Positions 23,485 to 39,894 of a DNA stretch of 64,000 nucleotides are shown one piece after another (the first letter of the stretch is position 1; every line of letters begins with the position of its first letter). Below the pieces are notes generated by a model. It was not told where the DNA came from, did no database searches, and worked only from the letters and a program-made list of their open reading frames with translations. Source of the DNA: a virus; the IMG/VR virus record IMGVR_UViG_3300029955_000013, positions 19,901-83,900 of that record; one strand, 5' to 3'. The position numbers and the translations under genes were made by a program.

Positions 23485-23899
23485 GGGGCCAAACAGGTTA
23501 TCGACTTAACGGTGTATGAGTCAGTAGTCATGCAGGGACAATTCGAATTGAGTTCCTCTAATAAATACATTCGATGCTATAAACGCAAAAAACAAAAGAA
23601 TCGCTGAAGGCGGCGCAATTCTAAGAAACATTTTCAGCAAGTCCGAAGCACCTTGTGCTATCGCAGCCTAATAAGCTTGCTGGAGAGTGCGCAAACTACT
23701 AAGTGTTTGCCAAGTGTGGTCGGGTAAATGTGGTTTCGCTTTTCTGCCATTGAGCGTAACTGCAGCACTTAGCAAAATGCTGTTATACCGAGATATAAAT
23801 GCAATCTGATATTCTCCTGGAAGAAACCAGCGATAAGCATGTGAGTTCCTACAGAACGTAAACGTTAAACACGAGGGTTCGACTCCCTCTGGCTCCACC
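23485..23899 (+). ncRNA. ssrA: transfer-messenger RNA
   Basis: 5' GGGGCCA...TCGAC; 3' T-arm GAGGGTTCGACTCCCTC then TGGCTCCACC; G3:U70; tag ORF 23585-23671 ending AIAA TAA TAA. Confidence 0.93.
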
Positions 23900-23938
23900 G
23901 AACCTAAATTTAATAGTATTTAAAGTGTAAAGTTTTGA

Positions 23939-24862
23939 ATGAATTTGAATTTAGGTAAACAGAAATTTTTTGTGATCTATCAGATTACCAATTTATTGAA
24001 TGGTAAGATTTATGTCGGTGCACATTGTACTTATGATGTGAATGATAAGTACATGGGTAGCTCCAAACACCTCAAAAAAGATATTAAAGAGTTAGGCCGA
24101 CAGAATTTTGCGAAGGAGATTTTACATGTCTTTGACAATAAAGAAGACATGATGGCAAAAGAGGCAGAAATTGTTGATCAAGAGTTCTGTCATCGAACTG
24201 ATACTTACAATCGTATGATTGGCGGGATAACAGAAATGTTATGGAATAATATGGTTTCGGTTCGAGATAAGGATGGAAACTATTTGAAAGTGTATAATGA
24301 TGATCCGCGTTATCTTTCCGGAGAATTTGTTGGTTGTACTAATGGTTTTGTTCCAGTAAAAGATGTTGAAGGAAATTTTTTACAAGTTGCTAAAGATGAC
24401 CCACGTTATTTGTCTGGTGAATTAGTTAGTTCTGCAAAAGGAATTTTTAACGCCAAGGATAAAGACGGTAATGTTTATCAAATCAGTAATAAAGATATAA
24501 GGTGGTTATCTGGAGAGTTGGTTGGATTAACTGCTGGTTTACATGGCAATTGTGCGTTCAGTGGTAAAAAACATTCAGAAGAAACAAAAGCCAAGATCGG
24601 AAAGAAAAATTCTTTAGCTCAAAGTGGAAGTGGTAATTCAATGTTTGGTAAAAAGCAAACAAAAGAATCTAACGATAAACGGCTTGATAAGATGGGTAAA
24701 AGTTTTTTTGTATTTGATACTGATGGCAATTTTATTTCGCAAGAATTTGGAATAAATCAATATGCGAATAAAAATAACTTAACTGCCACAAGCATTGTTC
24801 AGTGTTTGAAAGGTAAACAAATAAGTCATAAAGGTTTTAAGTTTTTATACGAAAATATTTGA
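23939..24862 (+). CDS. GIY-YIG homing endonuclease (Seg-like) with NUMOD3
   Basis: IYQITNLLNGKIYVG; GKKHSEETKAKIG; three DKDGN..DPRYLSGE-type repeats; more AT-rich than flanks. Confidence 0.85.
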   Translation: MNLNLGKQKFFVIYQITNLLNGKIYVGAHCTYDVNDKYMGSSKHLKKDIKELGRQNFAKEILHVFDNKEDMMAKEAEIVDQEFCHRTDTYNRMIGGITEMLWNNMVSVRDKDGNYLKVYNDDPRYLSGEFVGCTNGFVPVKDVEGNFLQVAKDDPRYLSGELVSSAKGIFNAKDKDGNVYQISNKDIRWLSGELVGLTAGLHGNCAFSGKKHSEETKAKIGKKNSLAQSGSGNSMFGKKQTKESNDKRLDKMGKSFFVFDTDGNFISQEFGINQYANKNNLTATSIVQCLKGKQISHKGFKFLYENI

Positions 24863-25539: not shown

Positions 25540-27033
25540 ATGGCCAGTAGGGAATTTGCTGAACAATTACAGACAAGACGTTTTGAAGAGGTAAAGGCGC
25601 TTTTCGCGAGTGTTATCAAAAAGGCGAGAATACTTCAGAAAGGCCTTGACAAGGAAAAGAGGTCTACGGACGACTTTGCATACATGATCGGCGAGCTGCT
25701 TGAGATACAGGAGCACTTCCAGAATTACAGCAAGGAAAAAACTGTTGCCGCACCGAGGGAGAACAACTTCGAGTACTTTAAGGCACTTGCCCGCAACGTA
25801 ATGGTCAGCGTTTCAAATCTTTACAAAGAGCTTGTCAAAGGCGGCTATACCACCGACGATCTCGGCTACGTCAAAGGCATCCTCAGGGACCTTAACAATA
25901 GGCTTTCCGGGTATGACACTATAAAGGAGGGCAGGACGCCGGTTGTTCGCACGAACAGGGTTAGGAGTATTATAAACAAGTTCTCTGGCAACATACTTAC
26001 GATAGAGGACGTCGAGGCTTTCTTCGCCGCGCTTACCAACCAACTTGGTATAGATTTTCACCCAGAAGACAGCTTCTATGATTACATAGACAATAACGGC
26101 CACATGACATTCTCGCCTGCGGACGCAACAGACCTCGACGAGATCATGTCCAATTGCGATGATGTTTGTTCGAGTAAAGGCTTGGATGTAAACCAGGTGG
26201 CGCTCGATACGGTCAATAATAACAAAAGCAACCCGCCTGCGGATGATGACGCCTCACAAGTAGAGGACGAGCAGCCGCTTGAGGAAGAGGACGAGCCGGA
26301 TTATAGCGACGAGGACAACGAGCATGAAAATTCACAGCAGGTCGATGACTTCATTTACAACCTTAAGACGGCCGCAGCGGGTAACCCTAACGCCCTCATC
26401 AAGAAGGCGCAAGAGCTTTCACAGAATTTCAGTTTGGATTTCATGGAATACCTAATAGACGTGCTCGAGCAGAATAATTACAGGGCTGCGGCGGCTGGCG
26501 TAAAGCAGAGCTTCGAGCAGAGGAGCAAAAGCGAGGAGTATAATCACTTCAAGGACAAGATTGATATGAACAGTCGCCTGAATTCTTCTAACTTCAACGA
26601 GAGCGAGTTTGATGATTTCGATACACAGCAACAACCTGAGGAGCAGGATGTCGAGGACTATGGCGACATGGACCAAGAGCCAGTATCGCAGGACGTGATT
26701 GACGAGCTTGAGCACTTCATCAAGCAGGTGAAGATAAACGCGTTGAGGAACCAAAATAATATAAACGACGAGGCTGGCGCCGCGTTCGCCCAATCTTCAG
26801 GTTATAGCAAAGAGGAGCTTGCTGAGTTTTTAAAGGTCCTGAAAGATCACGGAGGTTTCGACCAGATTGTCAAAGGCATAACTGAGGCGATGAGCGACGA
26901 CGGTAGCAACGATGAGGCGCCTATGTGTCATGCATGCAACGGTACTGGAGAGGGGCCTGCGAGCGGTACTTCCTGCCGTTCATGTGGAGGAAGCGGCGTG
27001 GAAGATGTAAGAAATACCTACCAGGACTATTAA
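25540..27033 (+). CDS. acidic late protein with C-terminal DnaJ-type zinc finger
   Basis: CHACNGTG...CRSCGGSG; TATTTAAA and TATAAATA upstream. Confidence 0.7.
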   Translation: MASREFAEQLQTRRFEEVKALFASVIKKARILQKGLDKEKRSTDDFAYMIGELLEIQEHFQNYSKEKTVAAPRENNFEYFKALARNVMVSVSNLYKELVKGGYTTDDLGYVKGILRDLNNRLSGYDTIKEGRTPVVRTNRVRSIINKFSGNILTIEDVEAFFAALTNQLGIDFHPEDSFYDYIDNNGHMTFSPADATDLDEIMSNCDDVCSSKGLDVNQVALDTVNNNKSNPPADDDASQVEDEQPLEEEDEPDYSDEDNEHENSQQVDDFIYNLKTAAAGNPNALIKKAQELSQNFSLDFMEYLIDVLEQNNYRAAAAGVKQSFEQRSKSEEYNHFKDKIDMNSRLNSSNFNESEFDDFDTQQQPEEQDVEDYGDMDQEPVSQDVIDELEHFIKQVKINALRNQNNINDEAGAAFAQSSGYSKEELAEFLKVLKDHGGFDQIVKGITEAMSDDGSNDEAPMCHACNGTGEGPASGTSCRSCGGSGVEDVRNTYQDY

Positions 27034-27102
27034 GGAAAACGGGTTTCTGGGAAAAAAACAAGAAAATTTTTGAAAAAATTTTTTTATTCTGGAAAAGTAC
27101 CG

Positions 27103-27110
27103 TACATTTG
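27103..27110 (+). promoter_or_regulatory. Bacteroidota sigma-70 -7 element for tRNA block 1
   Basis: TACATTTG matches TAnnTTTG. Confidence 0.75.
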
Positions 27111-27155
27111 TACTCTAAATAGCAAATAAGCAAATTTAAAGTATATAAAATATAT

Positions 27156-27248
27156 ATGAACAACAAGGTAAACATATTGATATTAGGCACCGAAGGCACA
27201 ACAGAGATTCTCGAAGGAATCCACTGGCTCCCAGCTCTATGTTCGTAA
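27156..27248 (+). CDS. attenuator leader peptide 1, MNNKVNILILGTEGTTEILEGIHWLPALCS
   Basis: 30-codon ORF between promoter and terminator; codons 7-22 are all I/L/G/T/E. Confidence 0.8.
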   Translation: MNNKVNILILGTEGTTEILEGIHWLPALCS

Positions 27249-27270
27249 GTTTACATTATGAATAAATTCG

Positions 27271-27305
27271 AAGCCTGGGAATAATCACCCAGGCTTTTTT
27301 ATTTT
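27271..27305 (+). terminator. attenuator terminator 1
   Basis: AAGCCTGGG/CCCAGGCTT plus U-tract; 5' arm can instead pair with TCCCAG (27229-27234). Confidence 0.85.
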
Positions 27306-27308
27306 AAC

Positions 27309-27384
27309 GGGAAAATCGCATAGTCAGGTCTATTGCCTCTGCCTTCCAAGCAGGTGTTCGTCGGTTCGAATCCGTCTTTTCCCT
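27309..27384 (+). tRNA. tRNA-Gly(TCC)
   Basis: GGGAAAA/TTTTCCC; loop CT-TCC-AA. Confidence 0.85.
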
Positions 27385-27441
27385 CACACGGGGCTCAGAT
27401 ACAAAGGTATCGTCTGCCCATGTTCTTTGACATATTATTAA

Positions 27442-27520
27442 GCCATGGTGGCACAGTGGTCGACTGCACCGGTCTTGTAAACCGGAATACAACACGTGGG
27501 TTCGAATCCCACCCATGGCT
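27442..27520 (+). tRNA. tRNA-Thr(TGT)
   Basis: GCCATGG/CCATGGC; CCGGT-CTTGTAA-ACCGG. Confidence 0.9.
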
Positions 27521-27526
27521 CATTAT

Positions 27527-27598
27527 CATCCTGTAGTCTAACGGTTAGGACGTCAGATTTTCACTCTGGAGATGGGGGTTCGATTCTCCCCAGGATGG
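27527..27598 (+). tRNA. tRNA-Glu(TTC)
   Basis: CATCCTG/CAGGATG; loop TT-TTC-AC. Confidence 0.9.
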
Positions 27599-27631
27599 CG
27601 ATTTTTAAAAGCTAATTTATAAATTCGTTTT

Positions 27632-28351
27632 ATGGAAAATCTTTATGACATTAACGGCCTCGTTTTCTGGAGCAAGAGGGAGATACAGTTTAGGAGGTAT
27701 GCGCAGGAATTTTTTTCGAGGGAGATAAGTGACCTGCTCATATTTGAGAACAAGAGCTGGTCTTTCCATGAGACTGAAGGCCCGCTGCTCATTCCTAAGT
27801 CCTTAATCAACGCCGATTATACCAACGAGGACATTTGGGTACAGGAAGTAATTGGCGACGATAACGAGCTCGTATTGAGGCCTGAGACTACTCCAAGCTC
27901 TTTCCGGTATGCGGTTTCTTTGATAAATAACTATGTTTCGCTCCCACCTATGGTTGTGGAGCAGACCGGCAAGTCATTCAGGCGGGAGCAGGATCAGGTC
28001 TCAAAGAACATGAGGCTCAAGGAATTCTACCAGCAGGAGTTCCAGTGCATTTATGCGGCGGACACCTTTAATGATTATCAGTCTAAGATATTGCCCGGCT
28101 TGGTGGCGGTTTTCCAAAAGCTGATTGGTAAGCCTTGCAGGATGGTAGATAGCGACAGGCTGCCTTCTTACAGCTTAAGGACTGTCGATGTGGAGGTGAA
28201 TAATGGTAACAAGTGGATGGAGGTTTGTTCTGTTTCAAAACGTACGGATTTTCCTATTCAAGTTAAGTTTGGTTCCAAGGAACCGAAGCCTATGCTGGTT
28301 CTCGAGATCGCGATAGGCCTTGACAGGTGCGTTTACAATTACTTTTTATAA
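27632..28351 (+). CDS. minimal class II aminoacyl-tRNA synthetase catalytic domain (GlyRS alpha2-like)
   Basis: LRPET, motif 2 GKSFRRE...EFYQQE, motif 3 EIAIGLDR; ends right after motif 3. Confidence 0.8.
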   Translation: MENLYDINGLVFWSKREIQFRRYAQEFFSREISDLLIFENKSWSFHETEGPLLIPKSLINADYTNEDIWVQEVIGDDNELVLRPETTPSSFRYAVSLINNYVSLPPMVVEQTGKSFRREQDQVSKNMRLKEFYQQEFQCIYAADTFNDYQSKILPGLVAVFQKLIGKPCRMVDSDRLPSYSLRTVDVEVNNGNKWMEVCSVSKRTDFPIQVKFGSKEPKPMLVLEIAIGLDRCVYNYFL

Positions 28352-28368
28352 TATTTTGCGGCCGAAAA

Positions 28369-28439
28369 GCATTTGTAGTTCAGTGATAGAACATGCCTCT
28401 CGTAAAGGTAAAACAGCAGTTTGATTCTGCTCTAATGCT
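28369..28439 (+). tRNA. tRNA-Thr(CGT), degenerate
   Basis: TGCCT-CTCGTAA-AGGTA; T-loop TTTGATT and D-loop lacking GG. Confidence 0.65.
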
Positions 28440-28496
28440 CATAAAGTTTTATTACTCTGGGGATTTCGATGTACATTTGCTTTGAAACATTATTCT

Positions 28497-29015
28497 ATGT
28501 ACAACATAAACAAGCGAGCGTTGGATATAAGGAAGATGTTTGGTGAGATTGCAGACATGAACAGTCCTTATGCTGGAACTCTGGATCTCGTTGTTAGGGA
28601 GGAAAAGATTTTCTGCATACTTGCCGAGTCGGTTAGCCAAACGCAGGCGAACTTCATGGTTCAAGAAATCTCAATGTCTTTCTTCCAGGACACGAAGAAC
28701 ATGTTGCTGTCGCAGGCCAAACTGATGCAGAATTTCATAGACACTTATTCTTCGTACGGTCCTGAGTTTAAGATAATAGAAGGGCAGCGAATGGCGTACC
28801 AGAATATGCTTAATTCAATAAATGGTTTGATCGAAGATGTTGACTCACATATAGAATTGTACACTCAATATATTGCGACCAACAACATAATAAAGAAAAG
28901 TATGAAGAAGACTATGAGGGAATGGAAGAAGAACGGTTTTCCTGATCGTTTTGCCGACTCGAGAGATATTCAGATAGTTCCAGACATAATGGGTAATGGT
29001 ACCACACCACCATAA
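28497..29015 (+). CDS. hypothetical protein
   Basis: Preceded by TACATTTG at 28472. Confidence 0.6.
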   Translation: MYNINKRALDIRKMFGEIADMNSPYAGTLDLVVREEKIFCILAESVSQTQANFMVQEISMSFFQDTKNMLLSQAKLMQNFIDTYSSYGPEFKIIEGQRMAYQNMLNSINGLIEDVDSHIELYTQYIATNNIIKKSMKKTMREWKKNGFPDRFADSRDIQIVPDIMGNGTTPP

Positions 29016-29023
29016 ATTAAAAT

Positions 29024-29095
29024 GCTCCGCTCTTCTAACGGTTAGGATGTGACCCTCTCACGGTTACGATACGGGTTCGATTCCCGTGCGGAGTA
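29024..29095 (+). tRNA. tRNA-Glu(CTC)
   Basis: GCTCCGC/GCGGAGT; loop CT-CTC-AC. Confidence 0.9.
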
Positions 29096-29110
29096 CAAAA
29101 AATAATTGAA

Positions 29111-29308
29111 ATGGGTTGGAAATGTACGCAGATTTTGACGAGACAGGAGGCGATAAATTTGATTGTTAGGTTGTCTGATGTGAGCATCTTGGAGAGCCTT
29201 TCTGACGACGATTTGTCAAACGTGGTTGACGGATTTTGTGGAGATAACATGGATATGCCTTATTATGGCTGCAACTTCATGGTCTCCGATGTTATAGATA
29301 ATGATTAA
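29111..29308 (+). CDS. hypothetical protein
   Basis: Small ORF between tRNAs. Confidence 0.55.
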   Translation: MGWKCTQILTRQEAINLIVRLSDVSILESLSDDDLSNVVDGFCGDNMDMPYYGCNFMVSDVIDND

Positions 29309-29312
29309 ATAA

Positions 29313-29384
29313 GCAGGAATAGCACAATGGCCAGTGTACGGGTTTGCCAAATCTGATATGGGAGTTCGATTCTCCCCTCCTGCT
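29313..29384 (+). tRNA. tRNA-Gly(GCC)
   Basis: GCAGGAA/CTCCTGC; loop TT-GCC-AA. Confidence 0.85.
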
Positions 29385-29465
29385 CTGTGTGTGCAAATAA
29401 AGTTCGAATCTTTACCTTATGTACCGGTTAGGGTAGGGTTAGTTCAATTGGTAGAACGGCACAGT
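29385..29465 (+). ncRNA. circularly permuted tRNA-like element (T-arm, closed acceptor stem, D-arm)
   Basis: TGTGC...AAAG-TTCGAAT-CTTT, ACCTTAT/GTAGGGT, GTTC-AATTGGTA-GAAC, GCACA. Confidence 0.65.
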
Positions 29466-29468
29466 GTC

Positions 29469-29541
29469 GGGCATGTAACTCAGCGGTTAGAGTAGTTCGC
29501 TCATAACGAAAAGGTCGTAGGTTCGATTCCTACCTCGCCCA
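29469..29541 (+). tRNA. tRNA with CAT anticodon, probably Ile2 (lysidine type)
   Basis: GGGC acceptor start, loop CT-CAT-AA, A73; two acceptor mismatches. Confidence 0.7.
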
Positions 29542-29561
29542 CCTTAAAAGCAAGAATACGA

Positions 29562-29771
29562 ATGGATAAAAATGAGTTAAAGAAGGTTATTTACAAGACA
29601 CAACCGATTGCGATTTTGCTTAATGTCAGGAAAGACGGATTGTCTTATGCTGCGAGTGTCGATAACAAGATAGTAAAGTTCTTTATACCATACGATGAGA
29701 TTGGTGAAGTGGTTTGGTTTGCAGAGATGCCGGCAAAGTTGCTGATAAGGTATTTGATAGATGTTGATTAA
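29562..29771 (+). CDS. hypothetical protein
   Basis: 69-aa ORF. Confidence 0.6.
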   Translation: MDKNELKKVIYKTQPIAILLNVRKDGLSYAASVDNKIVKFFIPYDEIGEVVWFAEMPAKLLIRYLIDVD

Positions 29772-29780
29772 ATATTTTTT

Positions 29781-30062
29781 ATGGAAGCCAAAGAGAAAAG
29801 ATTTCAGGGCCCTAATGGCGAGTTCGTACCGAGTAAACCGCTCAAGAAAGGCTACCTTTCTATAAAGCAAGCTGATGAAATATGTGAGTGGGTTTATTGT
29901 CACGACTCGTTTAGCGACGAAGAGAAGTTAAAAATGATACTTGGGGTGGAGACGCTGATCGGGGACATAATATCTGAGAACCTTGGAGACTTCAATGTGG
30001 CTTATGTTCCAACCTGGTCAACAAAGTTTAATGACAAAACGCCAATATCGTCTAACGGTTAG
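29781..30062 (+). CDS. hypothetical protein
   Basis: 3' end overlaps the next tRNA. Confidence 0.5.
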   Translation: MEAKEKRFQGPNGEFVPSKPLKKGYLSIKQADEICEWVYCHDSFSDEEKLKMILGVETLIGDIISENLGDFNVAYVPTWSTKFNDKTPISSNG

Positions 30063-30113
30063 GATTGCTCGTTTTCAGCGAGAAAGATGTCGGTTCGAAT
30101 CCGTCTATTGGTT
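30041..30113 (+). tRNA. tRNA-Glu(TTC), second copy
   Basis: GCCAATA/TATTGGT; CTCG-TTTTCAG-CGAG; U discriminator. Confidence 0.75.
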
Positions 30114-30198
30114 CAAAACTTGGAGGAATCTGGGTCTATCCTGAATTAATAAAGTGCGAGCAAGTGTACATATCTCGCCGCAATAAAGTAAGAGGGAT

Positions 30199-30270
30199 CG
30201 TGGATTAGCTCAGTGGTAGAGTAGCAGGCTGATGGACTGTTGGTCGGTGGTTCAAATCCACCATCCACAA
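30199..30270 (+). tRNA. atypical tRNA, GAT anticodon with C1:A72 mismatch
   Basis: CGTGGAT/ATCCACA; loop CT-GAT-GG; T-loop TTCAAAT. Confidence 0.7.
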
Positions 30271-30352
30271 CAAACCAGATAGGAATGTCTGGTGTGCTCT
30301 GGTAATGAGAGTGTGAATAAGCGCGAATAAAACACACTGGTAAGAAACAGAG

Positions 30353-30424
30353 TGTACTATAGGGTAGTGGTAGCCCGTCGGCATCAACAGCCGAAGATCT
30401 CAGGTTCGATTCCTGGTAGTGCAA
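30353..30424 (+). tRNA. atypical tRNA, CAA anticodon with short variable loop
   Basis: TGTACTA/TAGTGCA; TCGGC-ATCAACA-GCCGA. Confidence 0.7.
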
Positions 30425-30430
30425 CAATTT

Positions 30431-30769
30431 ATGGCTGAATATTATCATATAACTAATAGTAAAAACCTTAGTAATATCCTTACGGAAGGCCTGATACCAA
30501 ACAAGGGATATGGCATGAGCCGTAGGTTAATAAAGCATAACAAAAACTTTATTACGGATAATATTGCCTACATAATTCATAAGCAGATAGGCTTCAAAAG
30601 GTTTATTACAAAAGATTATGTAGTTCTTAATATCGAGCCATACGGTTTAAATATCAAAGAACACACTTATTGGGATCATATAAACCATAAACATGAAGTT
30701 GCAAAGCATGAGTTTGTTTGTTTTGACGTAATATTACCGAACAAAATTAGTGTAATGCAGAACAATTAA
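30431..30769 (+). CDS. ART-fold protein (Tpt1/KptA C-terminal-like)
   Basis: YHIT...L.NIL.EGL.P motif. Confidence 0.5.
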   Translation: MAEYYHITNSKNLSNILTEGLIPNKGYGMSRRLIKHNKNFITDNIAYIIHKQIGFKRFITKDYVVLNIEPYGLNIKEHTYWDHINHKHEVAKHEFVCFDVILPNKISVMQNN

Positions 30770-30778
30770 AATAATTTT

Positions 30779-31651
30779 ATGAACACACGTATTGCGCCTT
30801 CCCCAACAGGCTTTTTTCATCTGGGGACTGCACGGACAGCTTATCACAACTGGCTTGTGGCTCGCGCAACGGGTGGCTTGTTCACCCTGAGGATCGACGA
30901 CACCGACGACGACAGGAACGATGAGGGTCATGTACAGATGATCTACGACTGCATGGACTGGCTTGGTCTCGATTATGACGATACTTTCAGGCAGAGCGAC
31001 CGGAACAAGATTTATGTTGATTACGCTCAGTTCCTTTTGGACATTGATTATGCTACTGTTGCCGACAATGGTGCTATAATGTTTAGATTTCGTGATGAAG
31101 ATTTAATTCACTTTTTTAACGACACTATCGCCGGCAAGATAGAAACTAAGCAGGATGACATCGACAATCTTAGGAGCCTTGTTCTTATGAAGTCTGATGG
31201 TAACCCTACTTATAACTTCTGTTCCATTGTCGACGACTACCTAAGCAAGATAGACTGGATAATTCGTGGCGCCGATCACATAAAGAATACGATAAAACAG
31301 CTACATGTCATAGAGGCAGTTCAGTCTTTGGATAATCCGGTTAATTATTGGAAACCAAAGTTCACCCATGTGGGCCTTATACACGACATGAGCAACAAGA
31401 AGCTGTCCAAGAGGACCGGTGCGAAAAGCGTGCTCGACTACAAGAACGAAGGCGTAAAGCCGGGTGCTCTGCTCAACACGCTGCTTAGGATTGGCTGGGC
31501 GCCTACCGACCCGAACTTCGACTCGAAGCATAAGATCGTGACGAAGGACATGGCGGTGGACATGATACTCAAGGAAGGTAACTTCAGGTCTGCTCCCGGT
31601 AAGTTCGATCCGATGAAACTCGCATACTACAATAAAAAGCATAGTAATTAA
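30779..31651 (+). CDS. minimal glutamyl-tRNA synthetase catalytic domain (GluRS/GluQRS-like)
   Basis: TRIAPSPTG.HLGT, LRIDDTD, IRGADH, KLSKR; 290 aa, no anticodon-binding domain. Confidence 0.9.
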   Translation: MNTRIAPSPTGFFHLGTARTAYHNWLVARATGGLFTLRIDDTDDDRNDEGHVQMIYDCMDWLGLDYDDTFRQSDRNKIYVDYAQFLLDIDYATVADNGAIMFRFRDEDLIHFFNDTIAGKIETKQDDIDNLRSLVLMKSDGNPTYNFCSIVDDYLSKIDWIIRGADHIKNTIKQLHVIEAVQSLDNPVNYWKPKFTHVGLIHDMSNKKLSKRTGAKSVLDYKNEGVKPGALLNTLLRIGWAPTDPNFDSKHKIVTKDMAVDMILKEGNFRSAPGKFDPMKLAYYNKKHSN

Positions 31652-31679
31652 AAAAATGTCGCACATCAGTGCGACACTC

Positions 31680-31750
31680 GCCCGTATAATTTAATGGAAG
31701 ACTAATCCTTTGGTATGGGATATGCATCAGTTCGATTCTGATTATGGGCT
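31680..31750 (+). tRNA. tRNA-Thr(GGT)
   Basis: GCCCGTA/TATGGGC; ATCCT-TTGGTAT-GGGAT; weak D-arm. Confidence 0.75.
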
Positions 31751-31766
31751 CATAAAATTTCAATTA

Positions 31767-31937
31767 ATGCAGTTATCGTTTGGTATTGGTGATACGGTTT
31801 ACGCGAACGTTGGTGGCCAGGAGATGAAAATATTGGATGTCTCTGGCAACACGTATATTTGTCAGGTAATTGTTGACGGTAAGACGGAAAAGGTTAACTT
31901 CGAAAAGGGAACAGTACACAAGAAAATAAGGAAATAA
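31767..31937 (+). CDS. small YodC-like hypothetical protein
   Basis: F.IGD.V....GG..M pattern. Confidence 0.45.
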   Translation: MQLSFGIGDTVYANVGGQEMKILDVSGNTYICQVIVDGKTEKVNFEKGTVHKKIRK

Positions 31938-31991
31938 TTTATAAATGGAAAACATTCACGTCTCGTCTGGATAGCTCATCATTGATCAACA

Positions 31992-32195
31992 ATGATGACT
32001 ACAATTACAAGAACTCGATTTTGGAGAGTCGAGTGGATCCATAGAAATGGATACCGTGCACCACATTCGTTTGTGGAAGCAAAAAACAAGAAAGAGGCTG
32101 TGAAAATAGCCCAAGATAATTCCAGGTTTACTGATTTTCCCAAGACTTGGTCCTTTAATCTTGTCCGCTTAGTGGAGAAGGGAGAGGAAGAATAA
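31992..32195 (+). CDS. hypothetical protein
   Basis: VEAKNKKEAVKIA phage-type motif. Confidence 0.55.
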   Translation: MMTTITRTRFWRVEWIHRNGYRAPHSFVEAKNKKEAVKIAQDNSRFTDFPKTWSFNLVRLVEKGEEE

Positions 32196-32313
32196 ATGAC
32201 TTAAAACCGAACGGGTTTGTGGACAAGCAACAACCTGCTCCTGGCCAGCAATGGTATATGGAAAAACCACTTTAAATATGTTGTCGTGAAAGGGGGCGGT
32301 GACCCTTTCAAAT

Positions 32314-32384
32314 GCGGGAGTAGCACAATGGTAGTGCACGGGCTTGCCAAGTCTGATACGAGGGTTCGATTCCCTTCTCCCGCT
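32314..32384 (+). tRNA. tRNA-Gly(GCC), second copy
   Basis: GCGGGAG/CTCCCGC; loop TT-GCC-AA. Confidence 0.92.
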
Positions 32385-32419
32385 CAGGGTTAAAAAGAGT
32401 TTAAAATAAAAACAATTCT

Positions 32420-32692
32420 ATGAGTAATTTAAAGATACCTTCTTTTGAAGAGGTATTAGCGAATGATGGCAAGGCTGAAGACCTTGAGCTTATTAAGATA
32501 GAAAAGCAATCTCAGCTTGACACCCAGGTCAGGACCATAGAGGTTAAGATAGCAAGGGCACGCAAGCTTTTTGCGAAGTCTGTGATCGACCCGAAGATTG
32601 ACACTTTGGCGATTGCCTCAGAACTAAAGATATTGACTGCGGAACTCGAGCTTGCGAAGGAAATAAGAGAGGCGGTTTTCCCAAAAAATTAA
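32420..32692 (+). CDS. hypothetical coiled-coil protein
   Basis: 90-aa ORF. Confidence 0.6.
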   Translation: MSNLKIPSFEEVLANDGKAEDLELIKIEKQSQLDTQVRTIEVKIARARKLFAKSVIDPKIDTLAIASELKILTAELELAKEIREAVFPKN

Positions 32693-32696
32693 TTTG

Positions 32697-33476
32697 ATGA
32701 GCGTTATTGATGAACTTTGGAAACCTCAGCAAGAATCCGTTCACGATTATGACGACACTGTAAAAGAACTGCATCCGTACAAGGATTATATCCAGGAGAA
32801 GTATCGGCCGGAGCCTTGCGATTACAACAATTCGCCGCCTCGTTTTTATTATGGTTATGGCAACAGTTCTATTTTAATCACCAAGCAGCGTGGAAGGCGT
32901 AGGCATCTTGGGAAGCATATCATCATCAAAAAGACGCTTAAAAGCACCTATCTCGATTTTGAGCTTCCTGACAAACTTTACGTTACTGTAGAGGGTTTGA
33001 TCGTACATGAAAGCGATTTCTATTGTACTGATGACTCGTTCATGGAGGCGGAATACTTTACTAACAAGTCCATTTACCTGCAGTTTAAAGACGTTAGTTG
33101 CGACATCAACTTAATAGCTTATTTCTTGACCAATAAGGAGTATGATGATTACGAGAAGGAAGACTATCGGTATAGGAGCATGGGCATGATGAGTCCTGTG
33201 CTGGAAATTTACAAGTATCTGCACGAGGGTCGTTCGAAGATAGAGATCGTTTACTGCAATACCTTCTTTGATGATCCGAACAAGCATGTCATAAATAACA
33301 TGTTAAATACGAGTAAGTTTTTGATAGACCCGGTGGCCCCAATCGTACAAAGTGTTTGTGATCTCGGCCGGCATCTGTTCGTCAGCTCTAATGGTTACAT
33401 CTGTCACTGGAAGTTTTATACCAGATTAGATACAGACTTACTGATAAGACATGCTAAAAAACTTGTATTTCTATGA
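32697..33476 (+). CDS. hypothetical protein
   Basis: ~259-aa ORF. Confidence 0.6.
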   Translation: MSVIDELWKPQQESVHDYDDTVKELHPYKDYIQEKYRPEPCDYNNSPPRFYYGYGNSSILITKQRGRRRHLGKHIIIKKTLKSTYLDFELPDKLYVTVEGLIVHESDFYCTDDSFMEAEYFTNKSIYLQFKDVSCDINLIAYFLTNKEYDDYEKEDYRYRSMGMMSPVLEIYKYLHEGRSKIEIVYCNTFFDDPNKHVINNMLNTSKFLIDPVAPIVQSVCDLGRHLFVSSNGYICHWKFYTRLDTDLLIRHAKKLVFL

Positions 33477-33964
33477 ACATATTTGTGCTCGGCGGTACCA
33501 AGTCCGGTAAATCCACCATTGCGAAGTATATTGCTGATACGTATGGCTTCAAACTCATACAGATGTCCAAGCCGCTGAAAGATAGGTTCGAGCGTGGGGA
33601 TCTGAACATAGACGTTTACACGAACATGTTGGTTAAGACCACGCTTAGTTACATAGGTTCCAAAGAGAGGCGTAAATCTGAGTATTTCTTGAATTACGCT
33701 TTGCTGGAAATGGGGCCTAATAATGTGTTCGACGGTGTGCGGAACCCTCGTGACTTCATGAGGCTTTTCAATCACTTCGAGGACATGGTTATAAAGATGC
33801 CTGGCGAAGGCATAAATGCTTTTGAGGTGGATGGCTTAAGAGCTATATTCGGCTGCCACAGGTATATGTACAAGTACATGAGCGCAAAGCCGCTGATCAA
33901 GTACCATTACGATCTGGAGCTATCCATAGAGGAGAATTTCCAGAACAACAAAATAGTCATTTAA
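33473..33964 (+). CDS. P-loop nucleotide kinase-like protein
   Basis: GGTKSGKST, FDGVRN. Confidence 0.7.
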   Translation: MNIFVLGGTKSGKSTIAKYIADTYGFKLIQMSKPLKDRFERGDLNIDVYTNMLVKTTLSYIGSKERRKSEYFLNYALLEMGPNNVFDGVRNPRDFMRLFNHFEDMVIKMPGEGINAFEVDGLRAIFGCHRYMYKYMSAKPLIKYHYDLELSIEENFQNNKIVI

Positions 33965-33973
33965 AAGTAGCTT

Positions 33974-35185
33974 ATGGTTTCTAAATTCGCAATGGACGAC
34001 GCTTATGCTGTACAGGCAGACATTATAGAAGGTTGGTACACGAAGTACAAGTCCATGGATTTGCCTAACGGCTTCAAGAGGGTGTTGTATAGCTTTTCTA
34101 AAAGCGGCGTATCTGTTGCTCTCGGCAGGAATGAAAAATACGGGTATTTCATCTGCGCTTACGGTCAGGGCGAATATTCTTTCGTGATGACAGAAGCTGA
34201 TAGCGAGAACATTCCTGCCGAGGAAGTCTTTGACGTTAAAACTAAGGAAGGATTTATAAAGCATTTCGAGAGGTTTTGCAGGGAGTATAATTACTTGGAT
34301 TTCGAGGTAGTCGATAATGTAAGAGCCTATGATGACACGACGCTTTTCTGCCCGGCCGGGATGCAGAAGTATAAGAACGTGTTTAAGGCGGAGTGCCCAG
34401 AGGATGCTGACAAGGCCGTAAGGCGTCAGTACATGAAGCTAAATGAGAGTGTTATAGCAAATATTCAACCTTGCATAAGGATGAACGATTTGGATGATAT
34501 TGGTGACGGCACGCATTTGCTTTACTTCAACATGATGGGCCTTTTTGCATTTAGGACTCCTGGCTTTGGTGTTAGGCATGCTGTAAAATTTTGGCTTGAT
34601 TTCCTTGAGACGATCGGCTTGAAACCGGATCTTGTTACTGTCCACCCAGACAAGCAAGATTGGATATTTTATTACCAAGATGAAACGGTAGAGCAGAAAT
34701 ATGTAGACGATTTTCTTCAGTATAACGGGCCTGATTTCCTGCTCGATCCAGATTGCACGTGGACTGATGGCGAGATTGGAGGTTACTGTACGGAGTTCTA
34801 CATAAAGGACGTGGAGATAGGCAACATTGTGAATCCGCTTGGTAACTGCATAGATTGCGGCTTTGGCCTCGAGAGGATTCTGTATATACTCAATAATGAG
34901 TTGACTATCGCAACCGATTTGGACACGCTTAAGGAAACCATACTTAAGATATTAGACAGCGGTTACACGCCATCTAATCTCAAACAGGGCTATGTTTTAA
35001 GGAAGCTGTTGAGGGAGTTCGTCAAGAAGGGCGGCGAGATGGATCACGAGGTGTTTCTCGACGAGAAGGATAGGCAGCGAAAAATATATGACAGGTGGCT
35101 GCTGCTCAAGGATAAGCACAAGGACAAGAGCCCTGAATGGTGGTATGATACGCACGGGATTGATTTGAAAATGATAAACGGTTAA
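33974..35185 (+). CDS. minimal alanyl-tRNA synthetase (aminoacylation domain only) with N-terminal extension
   Basis: TLFCPAGMQ, QPCIRMND, H..YFNMMG.F, IDCGFGLERI, GYVLRKLLR, YDTHG. Confidence 0.88.
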   Translation: MVSKFAMDDAYAVQADIIEGWYTKYKSMDLPNGFKRVLYSFSKSGVSVALGRNEKYGYFICAYGQGEYSFVMTEADSENIPAEEVFDVKTKEGFIKHFERFCREYNYLDFEVVDNVRAYDDTTLFCPAGMQKYKNVFKAECPEDADKAVRRQYMKLNESVIANIQPCIRMNDLDDIGDGTHLLYFNMMGLFAFRTPGFGVRHAVKFWLDFLETIGLKPDLVTVHPDKQDWIFYYQDETVEQKYVDDFLQYNGPDFLLDPDCTWTDGEIGGYCTEFYIKDVEIGNIVNPLGNCIDCGFGLERILYILNNELTIATDLDTLKETILKILDSGYTPSNLKQGYVLRKLLREFVKKGGEMDHEVFLDEKDRQRKIYDRWLLLKDKHKDKSPEWWYDTHGIDLKMING

Positions 35186-35188
35186 TTT

Positions 35189-35506
35189 ATGACCAAAGCG
35201 CCTTTTGACGTCTTCTTTACTTTTGATATAAGTTTGAATATTGTGTCTTATGATTCGGATAGTGATACAATGAATTGGTTTAGCCGGTCTGTTCGTAATC
35301 AGATTAAGCTTCACGAGGAAGTTGGAAAGAAGATGGAAGACAGAGGCTATCTTTATGGCTGGTATGAAATATTGGAGACTGATTTTAACTTTCTCACACC
35401 GGCTAAAGAGTCGATCCAGGATAAAAAGGTAAAAGTAAAAGTCGGCGCCTATAAGGATGAACAGTTTATGTATTCTAAGAAAGAATTGGAAAAAATGGTA
35501 AGTTGA
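35189..35506 (+). CDS. hypothetical protein
   Basis: 105-aa ORF. Confidence 0.55.
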   Translation: MTKAPFDVFFTFDISLNIVSYDSDSDTMNWFSRSVRNQIKLHEEVGKKMEDRGYLYGWYEILETDFNFLTPAKESIQDKKVKVKVGAYKDEQFMYSKKELEKMVS

Positions 35507-35516
35507 TAAGTAAGAT

Positions 35517-35592
35517 GGGCGATTACTCCCTCACCCTTATAAGGTGTTGAAAGGATAGTTGGTACAGTTCGGTTCGATCCCGAAATCGCCTA
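35517..35592 (+). tRNA. non-canonical D-armless tRNA with TAT (Ile) anticodon
   Basis: GGGCGAT/ATCGCCT; CACC-CTTATAA-GGTG; TTCGG-TTCGATC-CCGAA. Confidence 0.7.
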
Positions 35593-35594
35593 CA

Positions 35595-36071
35595 ATGATT
35601 TACGATGAATTGTGTGGAGAGATTTATGACGAGGTGATAAAGTTTAATATTTTTAAACAGTACCTCGAGAATTACGATGTAGATTTGCCTAAGTTAAGAG
35701 TTGAGACGCTCGATTTTTGTTCACAGACAGTCGATGGCAGGGATGCGGATTATATGGCCAGGATTGCCGCGGCAAAGCCGAAGATTTATTTCGCTACTCT
35801 TATAAAGAGCAAGATACTTGGCGAGCTCGTTAAAATCAAGAAACGTCAAGATTTACTCGAGAAATGGCAGGCATCAGGCATATTGGATGGCTTACACCAG
35901 GGAGTTAACACTAATATTGTTGCATTGATGGAAAGCCAGTCGGAGCAGAGTATTACTGAAAACAGGAGCGCTGAGTTCTATTGGGACACAGTAAGGCTTC
36001 CGCTCGTAAGGAGTGTGTTAATTGATTCTTTAATCAAAGAAGCAGAGCATGACCAGGAAGAAAAGGTATGA
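35595..36071 (+). CDS. hypothetical protein with segment resembling T4-like major capsid N-terminus
   Basis: LLEKW..SG.LDGL...NI..LMESQ...LPLVR.V. Confidence 0.55.
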   Translation: MIYDELCGEIYDEVIKFNIFKQYLENYDVDLPKLRVETLDFCSQTVDGRDADYMARIAAAKPKIYFATLIKSKILGELVKIKKRQDLLEKWQASGILDGLHQGVNTNIVALMESQSEQSITENRSAEFYWDTVRLPLVRSVLIDSLIKEAEHDQEEKV

Positions 36072-36429
36072 ACTTACGAAATCGTCTGCCGATAAATTGA
36101 CAGACGCCATTGGGTGCAAGATAGATTTTAAGATAAAAGAGCTTGTAGTTTATCTTAACTTAAATAAGTTCGTTACATTTGCATCTTGTCAGGGACATAG
36201 GAGTCACGGCTTGCGTTACCCTTGGATTGATTTCGACATAAAGTCATACAATGGTTTATTCGATTTTATAAAGAGGCACAAAATCGTCGGCCTTGAAATA
36301 AAGCTCTTGGAAAGCGGTGATGGTTTCGTTATGAGGCTACAACCGGTAGACAAGACCAGGATAAAGGCGGCGAGGGATATTTTTCACATGCTTGAGAAGA
36401 AGTTAAGTAAAAGTTTTTGGAATAAATAA
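36049..36429 (+). CDS. hypothetical protein (T.ASC.GH motif)
   Basis: FVTFASCQGH...PWIDF. Confidence 0.55.
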   Translation: MTRKKRYELTKSSADKLTDAIGCKIDFKIKELVVYLNLNKFVTFASCQGHRSHGLRYPWIDFDIKSYNGLFDFIKRHKIVGLEIKLLESGDGFVMRLQPVDKTRIKAARDIFHMLEKKLSKSFWNK

Positions 36430-36480
36430 GTGATTCTTAGTTTCATCGCTGTAGGGATTCTATTAATCAAAACAGTTAAA

Positions 36481-36834
36481 ATGAAAGATCTAAGAATGGC
36501 CTTTGAGGGTTTGAGGAAAAACCCAGTATTCGTTGAAAATTTCTCTTGTGTAGAAGACGTCTTTAATGGTTTTGTCACATCGGAAGAACAAGAGCAGGGA
36601 GTAGAGATACTATATGCTGCTTACCATAGACCAGATTGGGAAGGCTATGCTACAGTTTACTTCTACAATGCGATCTCCGGAAAGTATTACGAGGTACACG
36701 GCTCACACTGTTCCTGCTACGGCTTGGAAGGTCAATGGGTCCCAGAGGAATTATCGTTAGAGGGATTGCAATACATCCTCGACAATGGTAATTCACACGA
36801 GTATGACGACTTTAGAGAAATCTTGGGAAGTTAA
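36481..36834 (+). CDS. hypothetical phage protein
   Basis: GSHCSCYGLEGQW.PE motif. Confidence 0.7.
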   Translation: MKDLRMAFEGLRKNPVFVENFSCVEDVFNGFVTSEEQEQGVEILYAAYHRPDWEGYATVYFYNAISGKYYEVHGSHCSCYGLEGQWVPEELSLEGLQYILDNGNSHEYDDFREILGS

Positions 36835-36887
36835 AAAAATGGTATCAAAGTATTGGGTGAGATTCCCAGTATTCCCTGATACCAAAC

Positions 36888-36960
36888 AGGCCTGTATATC
36901 ATCGGTTAGATAGCCATGCTGATAACATGGAAGCAGTTGGTTCGACTCCAACCTGGCCTA
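36888..36960 (+). tRNA. tRNA-Ile(GAT)
   Basis: CCATG-CTGATAA-CATGG. Confidence 0.88.
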
Positions 36961-36975
36961 CACTAAAAGAATTTT

Positions 36976-38142
36976 ATGAAAGTAGATGTTAACCAGTTCA
37001 AGGAGATACCTTCTCCTCACGGAGTTGGATTGTGTGTCTACGGCGGCATGAGCGATGAAATCAAGGCATGGACCGAGTATCACGATATAAAGACAGAATT
37101 CCACGGAAGATTTACTAATTTTCTGTTTGACGGCCAGGATCTCGATAATTGTTTCAACGAGGGGAAGGTGTACGATTACGTGGATGGTTTTTCGCCGAAT
37201 CTTAATAAGCATTTGCACCTCGGTCATGCGTCTAATTTTGTAATAGCGAAAGCGTTGCAGAACATGGGAATTGGCAAGAAGTACATTGCGAACCTTGGTG
37301 ATACTGTTACTGGAGCTGTTGATAAGTTCGAGGCGCTCGAGGCTTTGAGTGACCTTTGGGACAAGTTTGATTACAAGGTCGATAAGATTTACTTCGCTAC
37401 ACAATTGGTAGGCGATGTTGAGATGGAGGATGGTACTGGCGATTATGTCGGCACGAAGGTTTTCGACGTGAACGGTCAGAAGATAGTTGGCCAGAAGAGC
37501 AACGGTAATTATAGTTACTTTTACCATGACGTCGTTCTCGCGAGCAAGTTGAAAGGCGAGACTCTGTATATGACCGGTTTCGAGCAGAAGGAGCACTTTG
37601 AGAGCTTGAAGTGTCTTTACCCCGGCACTAACCACCTGATGCTTGGCCTCGTGACGATCGACGGCAGGAAGATGTCGAGTAGCGAGGGTAACGTGATTAT
37701 GTTGGCGGACGTCATGGACACGCTCAGGACCGAATTTGGAGACGATCACCTTGCTTGGAATGTTTTGAGTGGTTATATACTCAAGTCAGACGTGGACTCG
37801 GTTAAGGACATCAATATGGCCAACATAGACAACCCACGACAGTCTCTCGGTTTGTACTTCAGTTACACGCTCGCAAAGTTGAAGAGCGCCGGCATGAATG
37901 TGGAGCTGAAGGAAAAGTTTAATTCTTTTCGGATGCAGTACAAGTTCTTGAAGGCAAAGACGAACCTGCAGCCGAGAATATTGTTCGACGGCATTTTCGA
38001 TGTTGCAAAGAAGATTAGTACTCTATACGTAAACCACCACATAGCAGGCAACAAGAAAAACCAGGAGCTGTACCAGCCTTTGATGGAGGATTTGCTGCTC
38101 GGCATGGTAAAGCTTGGCATGTTTGACGTAGATAAGGTTTAA
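36976..38142 (+). CDS. compact arginyl-tRNA synthetase-like protein
   Basis: SPNLNKHLHLGH, EQ.EHF, KMSSSEGNVI, LYFSYTLAKLKS, LG..KLG; 388 aa. Confidence 0.85.
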   Translation: MKVDVNQFKEIPSPHGVGLCVYGGMSDEIKAWTEYHDIKTEFHGRFTNFLFDGQDLDNCFNEGKVYDYVDGFSPNLNKHLHLGHASNFVIAKALQNMGIGKKYIANLGDTVTGAVDKFEALEALSDLWDKFDYKVDKIYFATQLVGDVEMEDGTGDYVGTKVFDVNGQKIVGQKSNGNYSYFYHDVVLASKLKGETLYMTGFEQKEHFESLKCLYPGTNHLMLGLVTIDGRKMSSSEGNVIMLADVMDTLRTEFGDDHLAWNVLSGYILKSDVDSVKDINMANIDNPRQSLGLYFSYTLAKLKSAGMNVELKEKFNSFRMQYKFLKAKTNLQPRILFDGIFDVAKKISTLYVNHHIAGNKKNQELYQPLMEDLLLGMVKLGMFDVDKV

Positions 38143-38249
38143 AGATAGTGCACCGGGATGGGATACCGGAACAGAATGCGATCCTCAAAGAATATAGCAA
38201 TTAGGCCGCCTGTGGCTATGTGTTAAATGGTATGAGGCATCCCAACAAT

Positions 38250-38323
38250 GGGGAGGTGGCCAAATGGTGAAGGCACTTGACTGATAATCAAGAGATGTGT
38301 GAGTTCGAGCCTCACTCTCCCCA
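38250..38323 (+). tRNA. tRNA-Ile(GAT)
   Basis: GGGGAGG/TCTCCCC; CTTGA-CTGATAA-TCAAG. Confidence 0.88.
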
Positions 38324-38468
38324 CGAGGCAATAGCAGGTAGCTCATGTACGTACCCTTCTGCAGACGTGGTCAAATCGTGAGCGAAGCATCAATCGTACC
38401 TGTCCACTGTAACGTGCAGTAGTAGCTGACTAAAAATACGAGACAAGTTGCGGAGAGACGCAACAAAC

Positions 38469-38547
38469 GGTGAGGTGATGGAATTGGCAGACATTGGGGA
38501 TAGGATTCCCCTGCGCAAGCGTGGAGGTTCGAGTCCTCCCCTTACCA
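38469..38547 (+). tRNA. Leu-type tRNA body with 6-nt anticodon loop (pseudo or non-canonical)
   Basis: GGTGAGG/CCTTACC; GGAATTGGCAGAC; GGGGA-TAGGAT-TCCCC. Confidence 0.65.
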
Positions 38548-38562
38548 CTTAAATTTAACGTT

Positions 38563-38829
38563 ATGACAAGTTTATTGAAGTTTAACAAGTCTGTTACCGA
38601 CAGGTTTACGCCTGCCGAGATCGGTGACATGTTGGTTGGCGAAAAGAAGTATGCCTTAGAGGTTGAGGGTGGTAACCGCGAGCCTACGGGCATCTTTAAG
38701 GACGAGGATGGCGACCTGTATGTTACCATACATGGTTACAAGGTTGGCCGCACAGACCTCGAGGTAGAGTTCGTGGTATTTCCACAATATGACAATCACA
38801 CAATTTTTCAAGCGAGGGTACAGATTTAA
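38563..38829 (+). CDS. hypothetical protein
   Basis: ATG after tRNA. Confidence 0.55.
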   Translation: MTSLLKFNKSVTDRFTPAEIGDMLVGEKKYALEVEGGNREPTGIFKDEDGDLYVTIHGYKVGRTDLEVEFVVFPQYDNHTIFQARVQI

Positions 38830-38911
38830 TGGTAAAGAAGATATTGAGATTTTTCGGTTTGTGTAAACCAGAGAGCGTAGAAGATTTTAAACAGCGTATA
38901 TCCAATAGGTA

Positions 38912-39334
38912 ATGGCAAACTATTTCACGGTTCGGGATCTTATTGAGTTCATAACGAATAACAACATCCCAATGGATGCAAGGATTTATATGCAGCGTGT
39001 GGAAGACGTCTATTTCAACGGAGTGGATATTGGTGGGTGTGGCGGCTATGTGGACGATAACGGTGTTCGCAGTTGTTTTCCGCCTGGTTCTAAAGCTGAT
39101 GGGTGGAAGACTGTCAAGAAAGAGGGTTATGCTTATCGTAAGGCTTTGGAGTTGAACAGAAGGGTAGATGCTGGAGATTTTCACAACAAGGAAGATTTCC
39201 CGGATCTGGAAGACCCTGAGGTTTTAAGGTCGAGCGAGGAAAGGCTCGAGGAGCTCAAGGAACAGTATTATCCTTGCTTCTCTCCGGTTTACTATGCTGA
39301 TCAGAAGGATTTGTTTTTGGATGCACACTATTAA
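38912..39334 (+). CDS. hypothetical protein
   Basis: 140-aa ORF. Confidence 0.65.
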   Translation: MANYFTVRDLIEFITNNNIPMDARIYMQRVEDVYFNGVDIGGCGGYVDDNGVRSCFPPGSKADGWKTVKKEGYAYRKALELNRRVDAGDFHNKEDFPDLEDPEVLRSSEERLEELKEQYYPCFSPVYYADQKDLFLDAHY

Positions 39335-39345
39335 ATAAAAATTAT

Positions 39346-39564
39346 ATGGGATTGGTAGTTAACGTTACTTCTAAAGAGATTATTAGTGGCAAGTTTATGA
39401 AAACGCTCATGAAGTTGCAGGGTTATATTCAGGAAGCCAAGGGTGACATTGAGGTTAGCCAGAGTTACAGTGCTAAAGCTGTGCACTCACGGATGGAGCG
39501 GATCATGGAACTTATGGAAGAAGACATGACCGCATTGGCAAACTCGATACAATTACCAGAATGA
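39346..39564 (+). CDS. hypothetical protein
   Basis: 72-aa ORF. Confidence 0.55.
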   Translation: MGLVVNVTSKEIISGKFMKTLMKLQGYIQEAKGDIEVSQSYSAKAVHSRMERIMELMEEDMTALANSIQLPE

Positions 39565-39806
39565 ACAAGTTTCTGCAAGAGGATTTTAAGGAAATTATTG
39601 ATCAGTTGTCAGAAAAGCTTGATCCAGGTAGCAAAAAAGTATTGCAAGAGGTGATAATGGATAATCTTGTCGAAATAAAAGAGAAATATCGTCTTTACAA
39701 GAATTCAGGCTCTGGCAGGATTAGCCTTAATTATACCCGTATTGCTATTGATTACTGGAGCCAAGTGCCTCATTTGATTGAGTTTCTTGAAAAATTTTTA
39801 GAGTAA
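39561..39806 (+). CDS. hypothetical protein
   Basis: Coupled ORF. Confidence 0.55.
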   Translation: MNKFLQEDFKEIIDQLSEKLDPGSKKVLQEVIMDNLVEIKEKYRLYKNSGSGRISLNYTRIAIDYWSQVPHLIEFLEKFLE

Positions 39807-39807
39807 T

Positions 39808-39880
39808 GGCACTGTAGACCAACGGGAGAGTCAACGGCTTTAAACCCCGTCAAGTGTCGGTTCGAGTCCGACCAGTGCTA
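39808..39880 (+). tRNA. tRNA-Leu(TAA), short variable loop
   Basis: GGCACTG/CAGTGCT; loop TT-TAA-AC. Confidence 0.8.
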
Positions 39881-39894
39881 CAAAAAATAAAAGC

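Follow-up and report, generated by a model that had tools for sequence, protein, structure and literature searches.

The stretch of DNA analyzed here (the window) is the final 64 kb of an 83.9-kb virus record and carries a tmRNA gene and 27 tRNA genes, all called by ARAGORN on the + strand; Rfam recovered the tmRNA and 24 of the 27 tRNAs. Truncated GlyRS-, GluRS-, AlaRS- and ArgRS-like genes and an RNA ligase gene are interspersed among the tRNA genes. With the GlyRS-like gene as query, the relatives recovered were phage records of 277–561 kb with 36–68 tRNA matches each (nine searched), and the window represents a huge phage's translation island. The interval 23485–24862, which precedes the tRNA units, holds the tmRNA gene (ARAGORN and Rfam, 60.8 bits) and, directly after it, a GIY-YIG/NUMOD homing-endonuclease-like ORF (23939–24862).

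Closely related DNA was recovered from peat metagenomes, which contain contigs near-identical to the window. Around the leader at 27156 (region 26900–27700), contigs from four further peat runs are identical wherever they overlap and thus supply no informative variants. Among the sequencing runs listed as containing this sequence, none is an RNA run. Megablast of 26–31 kb of the window against GenBank phages gave no match, and the 497-aa protein encoded upstream, used as an anchor against viral contigs, returned no relatives. A scan of metagenomes anchored on the GlyRS-like gene yielded 79 loci, almost none of them near tRNA arrays and with only two weak terminator/tRNA pairs; no close relative of leader 1 was found among these loci.

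Organization of the tRNA genes

Unit 1 (27309–46561, + strand) comprises 19 ARAGORN-called tRNA genes: three each for Gly, Thr, Glu and Ile, four for Leu, one with anticodon CAT, one for Cys, and one ambiguous class-II-like gene. GlyRS-, GluRS-, AlaRS- and ArgRS-like cores, an RNA ligase gene and small ORFs lie between them. A terminator identified by the terminator scan (46576–46603, + strand) directly follows the tRNA-Cys gene and probably ends the unit. Within 25 nt past this terminator are a second copy of the promoter-like TACATTTG box (46627–46634) and an ATG (46637), so that positions 46576–46640 form a compact terminator/promoter junction between transcription units. Since unit 1 probably ends at the terminator after tRNA-Cys, the window resolves into two promoter/leader/terminator/tRNA units. 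Unit 1 is 19 kb long and contains many ORFs, and internal promoters may be present.

The anticodons called in unit 1 by ARAGORN and Rfam are TCC, TGT, TTC, CGT, CTC, GCC, CAT, GAT, CAA, GGT, TAA, TAG and GCA. These account for most of the list drawn up in an earlier sequence-only reading of this DNA; the remaining two, Ile(TAT) and Leu(GAG), were based on unusual tRNA-like sequences and were called by neither program. One class-II tRNA-like sequence (42113–42214), with no ARAGORN or Rfam call, lies ~690 nt upstream of the RNA ligase gene (42901–44037) and contains ~18 extra nucleotides within its anticodon loop; with the insert removed, the loop reads TTGAGGT and corresponds to Leu-GAG. The gene at 38469–38548, called Pro(AGG) by ARAGORN, has a long, class-II-like variable arm and an apparent 8-nt anticodon loop, ATAGGATT; it falls under the Rfam gathering score, and its identity is thus doubtful. 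The ARAGORN calls tRNA-Trp (47932–48005) and tRNA(CAT) (57972–58045), both in unit 2, are likewise absent at the Rfam gathering threshold and may be divergent tRNAs.

Leader 1 and its terminator

Immediately upstream of unit 1 is a compact series of elements on the + strand, in the order promoter-like box, start codon, 16-codon run, 21-nt gap, terminator and first tRNA. The leader 1 mini-ORF (27156–27248) has 30 codons followed by TAA, and its ATG is the earliest start past the in-frame stop at 27120. It has an AT-rich 5' UTR and no Shine-Dalgarno sequence, and its translation is predicted. The promoter-like TAnnTTTG box (TACATTTG, 27103–27110) lies 53 nt upstream of the ATG and is preceded by an A/T tract. 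The box is of the Bacteroidota -7 promoter type. Such boxes occur no more than 110 nt upstream of seven of the ten leaders examined, and genome-wide at about chance density, with an expectation of ~0.06 per 110 nt. A TAATATATA-like motif is found 4–35 nt ahead of many leader ATGs (L003, L033, L034 and L002; positions 27141–27155 in the window), and leader N-termini are alike, of the type M-[KN]-[TN]-[LTI] and written in A-rich codons. The motif and the shared N-termini may represent an initiation-enhancing context for translation lacking a Shine-Dalgarno sequence, or a phage promoter element.

Codons 7–22 of leader 1 (27174–27221) form a regulatory run, ILILGTEGTTEILEGI, of 16 consecutive Ile, Leu, Gly, Thr or Glu codons written with 12 different triplets. 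Conceptual translation confirmed this composition as first read from the sequence, together with CTA and TGT at codons 28–29. A run of this length within the five-residue set was reached by none of 20,000 random peptides of background composition, and tRNA genes for all five amino acids are present in the downstream operon. The sequence-only reading went further, proposing a match almost isoacceptor by isoacceptor in which every anticodon except Thr(CGT) has an exact codon. At this level the claim is unsupported: because Leu(GAG) is uncalled, the two CTC codons are left without a called cognate tRNA, and the TGT codon is read by GCA through wobble only. Resampling of synonymous codons gave P = 0.10 for leader 1 and 0.13 for ten leaders; anticodon coverage is thus not unusual given the amino acids and phage codon usage, and the match is one of amino acids, with no demonstrable match of isoacceptors. 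The tail of the leader (27222–27245) reads H W L P A L C S, and for four of its residue types, Trp, Ser, Cys and Leu, there are tRNA genes farther along the window. No such correspondence is seen in the tails of other leaders, and the one here may reflect chance or the constraint imposed by the antiterminator strand.

The intrinsic terminator (27270–27305; hairpin 27270–27297 plus T-run) has a 10-bp stem with six GC pairs and an 8-nt loop, a predicted stability of -16.9 to -17.5 kcal/mol, and the first rank in the terminator scan of 22–41 kb. Its stem begins after a gap of 21 nt from the leader stop codon and stops 11 nt short of tRNA-Gly(TCC) at 27309, too close for a separate promoter to fit in between. 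Three further structures are predicted. A long hairpin (regions 1:2, 27168–27254, -20.1 kcal/mol) sequesters the antiterminator strand in the untranslated leader. The 5' strand of the antiterminator (region 2, TCCCAGCTC, 27229–27237, codons 25–28) pairs with the terminator 5' arm (27270–27280), which is thus common to the terminator and the predicted antiterminator. Inside the antiterminator helix, a small hairpin (27240–27264) spans the stop codon and contributes -6.2 kcal/mol alone, against -15.3 kcal/mol for the antiterminator as a whole. This arrangement, with TCCCAG(CTC) paired to the terminator arm and enclosing the stop-codon hairpin, had been proposed beforehand and emerged as the minimum free-energy structure of the nascent transcript with a ribosome masked at codons 7–16.

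The outcome of folding with the ribosome footprint masked depended on how the transcript was treated. At equilibrium the antiterminator loses, and the terminator forms with P ≥ 0.95 at every masked ribosome position; the switch can therefore only be kinetic. The trp attenuator is likewise a kinetic switch in which the terminator is the more stable hairpin. Since equilibrium folding is uninformative for such a switch, we used nascent-transcript folding instead, in which only the RNA between the leading edge of the ribosome and the terminator loop is folded. In this model the probability of sequestration of the leader 1 terminator 5' arm is 0.77 when the A site is at codons 7–21, and it drops to 0.13–0.20 from codon 23 to the stop codon (0.13 at the stop). 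The footprint-masking check proposed with the original reading gives a predicted switch in its nascent-transcript version and a dominant terminator throughout in its equilibrium version. Taken individually, the leader 1 antiterminator duplex does not outperform shuffled controls (z = -0.07), and its sequestration switch is not significant against mononucleotide shuffles (p = 0.11). Long-range pairing to the terminator arm was also possible when partial transcripts were folded without a ribosome.

A second cassette and cassettes in related huge phages

Only one further strong terminator in the window lies immediately ahead of a tRNA gene, at 47894–47927 (stem 47894–47920, ending 11 nt before tRNA-Trp at 47932), and it belongs to a cassette built in the same way on the + strand. 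A promoter-like TATATTTG box (47768–47775) is followed by the leader 2 mini-ORF (47794–47871; 25 codons), whose codons 5–15 (47806–47838) encode SSYSSSWSWSS and use five of the six Ser codons together with TGG. Twelve of the 24 leader 2 residues are Ser, Trp or Met, compared with a background of 0.11 (p = 3.5e-6). Pairing is predicted between the 5' arm of the cassette 2 terminator and 47844–47854 within leader 2. Downstream, unit 2 (47932–58045, + strand) carries two tRNA-Trp genes, four tRNA-Ser genes (TGA, GCT, CGA and GGA) and two tRNA(CAT) genes with interleaved ORFs, and a further terminator (58165–58187, + strand) lies past its end. The amino-acid sets of the two units are disjoint except for the shared CAT (Met-type) tRNAs.

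To these two modules, six related huge-phage records add 15 further cassettes, giving 17 modules in seven records. A terminator scan with fixed criteria covered 775 kb of loci and returned 372 terminator-like hairpins, of which only 13 are followed or flanked by a tRNA on the same strand at a distance of 60 nt or less. All ten strong tRNA-proximal terminators (dG ≤ -13.7) are preceded by a short ATG-initiated ORF that ends 21–27 nt before the stem. The leader core IYIGYIAEGGYEAG (L003) stands ahead of tRNAs for Glu, Tyr, Gly, Ile and Ala, and the core SYSYCYYGSSSSS...GYESEEGS ahead of tRNAs for Glu, Ser, Tyr, Gly and Cys. A 20-residue T/L/V/N/M/I run precedes tRNAs for Leu, Asn, Thr, Arg, Ile, Val and Met; QQVQQQQ precedes four tRNAs for Gln; SSHKHFSKS.KWFSHS precedes His, Lys, Trp, Phe and Ser; and SRSRSSRS precedes Ser and Arg. 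Several of these cassettes (Gln x4; Ser/Arg) have only tRNA genes in the array stretches examined. Looser inspection, in which terminator and first tRNA were separated by 100–130 nt, added a leader LSKLLRRRKWLRR (tRNAs for Arg, Trp, Leu and Lys), an S/H/C-rich leader (Ser, Cys and His), an E/Y leader (Glu and Tyr) and a second S/R leader.

Across the 17 modules, the leaders correspond to their own arrays. The summed enrichment (trace Z) is 67.4, compared with 6.3 ± 7.3 for permuted pairings (z = 8.3), and none of 300,000 permuted leader–array pairings reached the observed value. Thirteen of the 17 leaders match their own array best; L033a fits its array poorly, with 3 of 24 residues. Especially telling is a natural experiment offered by two related phages. 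L003 has a single leader (I, Y, G, A, E) ahead of a single array; in its relative L002 the array is split (L002a/L002b), the Glu and Tyr tRNAs following an E/Y leader and the Ile, Gly and Ala tRNAs an I/A/G leader. As judged from these sequences, the leader repertoire divides along with the array.

The structural logic recurs as well. In each of the ten modules modelled, the probability of sequestration of the terminator 5' arm is 0.55–0.91 when the A site is in the run and only 0.04–0.33 when the ribosome is at the stop codon, and the drop starts near the end of the matched-codon run. The sequence that pairs with the terminator arm is in every case located in the distal leader, just past the run, and the nested layout of leader 1 is found in other modules. 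In silico, these results bear out the proposal that a ribosome at the stop codon blocks the antiterminator and a stalled one permits it. Per-module p-values were obtained from mononucleotide shuffles, and their Fisher combination, calculated by hand, is ~1e-6. Complementarity between leaders and their own terminators (-100.6) exceeds that of cross pairings (-75.9 ± 6.5), with 15 of 100,000 permutations reaching the observed value. The leader of L032 repeats 11 nt of the terminator 3' arm, and in the homologous pair L034b and L130a the terminator stem is preserved by one compensatory and two wobble-compatible changes.

Cassettes are mostly missing from more distant, TAG-recoding relatives (G002–G004), with one weak candidate (L037). 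In G002–G004 a very strong terminator lies after tRNA-Ala(TGC), and the arrays begin 450–1200 nt past it. Many relatives (L006, L012–L014, L018–L022 and L038) have a tRNA whose anticodon is CTA, which suggests that TAG is read as sense in these phages.

Proposed regulatory model, alternatives and known systems

We propose that the leader 1 system is a ribosome-mediated leader-peptide transcription attenuator gating a phage tRNA operon, an assignment that we regard as likely. Transcription would begin at the promoter ~40 nt upstream of leader 1, and a ribosome would translate the 30-codon leader closely trailing RNA polymerase. Slow decoding of any Ile, Leu, Gly, Thr or Glu codon in the run, as when the charged tRNA is scarce, would stall the ribosome upstream of 27229, leaving 27229–27237 free to pair with 27270–27280 and so blocking the terminator hairpin; the polymerase would then continue into the tRNA, synthetase-like and RNA-ligase genes. 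With fast decoding, the ribosome would move on through the distal codons to the stop codon, covering the antiterminator strand; the terminator would form, and transcription would halt 11 nt before the first tRNA. The logic would be that of an OR gate across five amino acids, as the sequence-only reading had it. Support for this multi-amino-acid reading comes mainly from comparison between cassettes, with 17 of them in seven records and leaders that follow their own arrays. Cassette 2 would act likewise on its tRNAs for Trp and Ser. Since each unit yields the very tRNAs that decode its leader's test codons, the arrangement would amount to a negative-feedback, self-limiting and demand-driven tRNA supply, and the phage probably makes these tRNAs only during a shortage of tRNA at the ribosome. 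Candidate triggers include codon-usage mismatch, host shut-off and an anticodon nuclease.

Three other readings of the locus can be weighed against this attenuator. A classical amino-acid sensor, comparable to thrL and ilvL and responding to Ile, Leu, Gly, Thr or Glu starvation, would have the synthetase-like genes as its targets and the tRNAs as passengers. GlyRS- and GluRS-like cores do lie within unit 1, E. coli pheST is under such control, and a leader is unable to tell lack of an amino acid from lack of its tRNA. Yet AlaRS- and ArgRS-like genes are also present in unit 1 and the run contains no Ala or Arg codons, which indicates that the leader tracks the tRNAs and not the synthetase-like genes; conversely, no Ile, Leu or Thr synthetase gene was identified in unit 1 despite the codons for these amino acids in the run. 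Cassette 2, like the Gln and Ser/Arg cassettes noted above, is tRNA-only in the stretches examined, and extra tRNA would give no relief from amino-acid starvation. We therefore consider an amino-acid sensor quite unlikely.

The thermodynamic dominance of the terminator and the individually non-significant antiterminator of leader 1 would also be expected of a constitutive, leaky insulator or of the end of a small independent gene, with a mini-ORF that is untranslated or has another role and with no switching by ribosomes. Such an element, which we judge very unlikely, leaves unexplained why 17 leaders track their own tRNA sets, why a leader split accompanies an array split, why the spacing from stop codon to stem is fixed at 21–27 nt, and why the terminator arm in every case has its pairing partner just past the run. 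A response of opposite sign, or by another route, appears more improbable still: stalling would uncouple ribosome and polymerase and lead to Rho-dependent or hairpin termination, with tRNAs made only under good decoding. Untranslated tRNA arrays are natural Rho targets, and the folds give an ambiguous picture of the default state without translation. Every module nevertheless has an intrinsic terminator, and in ten of ten a ribosome in the run frees the antiterminator partner and one at the stop codon covers it; partner exposure of this kind implies that shortage would lead to read-through, the direction that the attenuator reading predicts.

The reasons for the dozens of tRNA genes in large phages, and the way these genes are deployed, are debated; compensation for codon usage, host shut-off and evasion of anticodon nucleases have all been proposed. 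A leader gauging the speed of decoding at codons read by the phage's own tRNAs would, if the attenuator reading is correct, be a previously undescribed regulation of tRNA genes, and phages would provide tRNAs on demand, by amino-acid group. Leader reporter fusions would then report the decoding shortages that arise during infection. As the leaders are recognizable from sequence alone, they mark tRNA operon boundaries in uncultivated phage genomes. More tentatively, and with some doubt on our part, the cassettes could also serve as counter-defence sensors: depletion of particular host tRNAs by a host anticodon nuclease or by phage shut-off would stall ribosomes in the matching leader and switch on only that group's replacement tRNAs, along with the unit's RNA ligase and synthetase-like genes. 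In that event the tRNA repertoire of the phage would consist of independently gated, damage-responsive modules.

No account of leader-peptide or attenuator (trp-operon-style) control of phage tRNA genes was found in full-text searches of the literature. A silent accessory tRNA array that is induced on impaired translation is known from Anabaena PCC 7120, in its long tRNA operon (trn) (PMC8421152, PMC10272220). Unlike the phage cassettes, trn resides on a cellular megaplasmid and is controlled by a protein repressor, TrcR, and the words leader, attenuator and terminator are absent from both papers (PMC8421152, PMC10272220). T-box riboswitches resemble the cassettes in sensing a specific tRNA state and choosing between terminator and antiterminator; a T-box, however, binds uncharged tRNA directly, with neither ribosome nor ORF. 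An Rfam search of 22–60 kb gave no T-box, leader family or other regulatory RNA at gathering score.

Leader-peptide attenuation of a component of the translation apparatus is exemplified by the E. coli pheST attenuator with its pheM leader. This system controls one synthetase operon in response to one amino acid, whereas the phage leaders track tRNAs and ignore the AlaRS- and ArgRS-like genes. The closest parallels are the attenuators of enterobacterial amino-acid operons, some of which are multivalent, as in thrL (Thr/Ile) and ilvL of ilvGMEDA (Ile/Val/Leu); others are trpL, hisL, leuL and pheL. The phage cassettes share with them a promoter-proximal mini-ORF, a multi-amino-acid run, a terminator 5' arm predicted to pair into or just after the leader, and a predicted choice of hairpin set by ribosome position. 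They differ in having no sequence or Rfam-family similarity to these attenuators, in a run of mixed codons for five amino acids, and in occurring several to a genome, each for one amino-acid group of tRNAs. They differ also in what is regulated—phage tRNA genes, with synthetase-like cores and an RNA ligase, in place of biosynthetic enzymes—such that the output would act directly back on the quantity sensed. The cassette is a real, recurrent element in which a known regulatory mechanism is probably applied to a new class of target.
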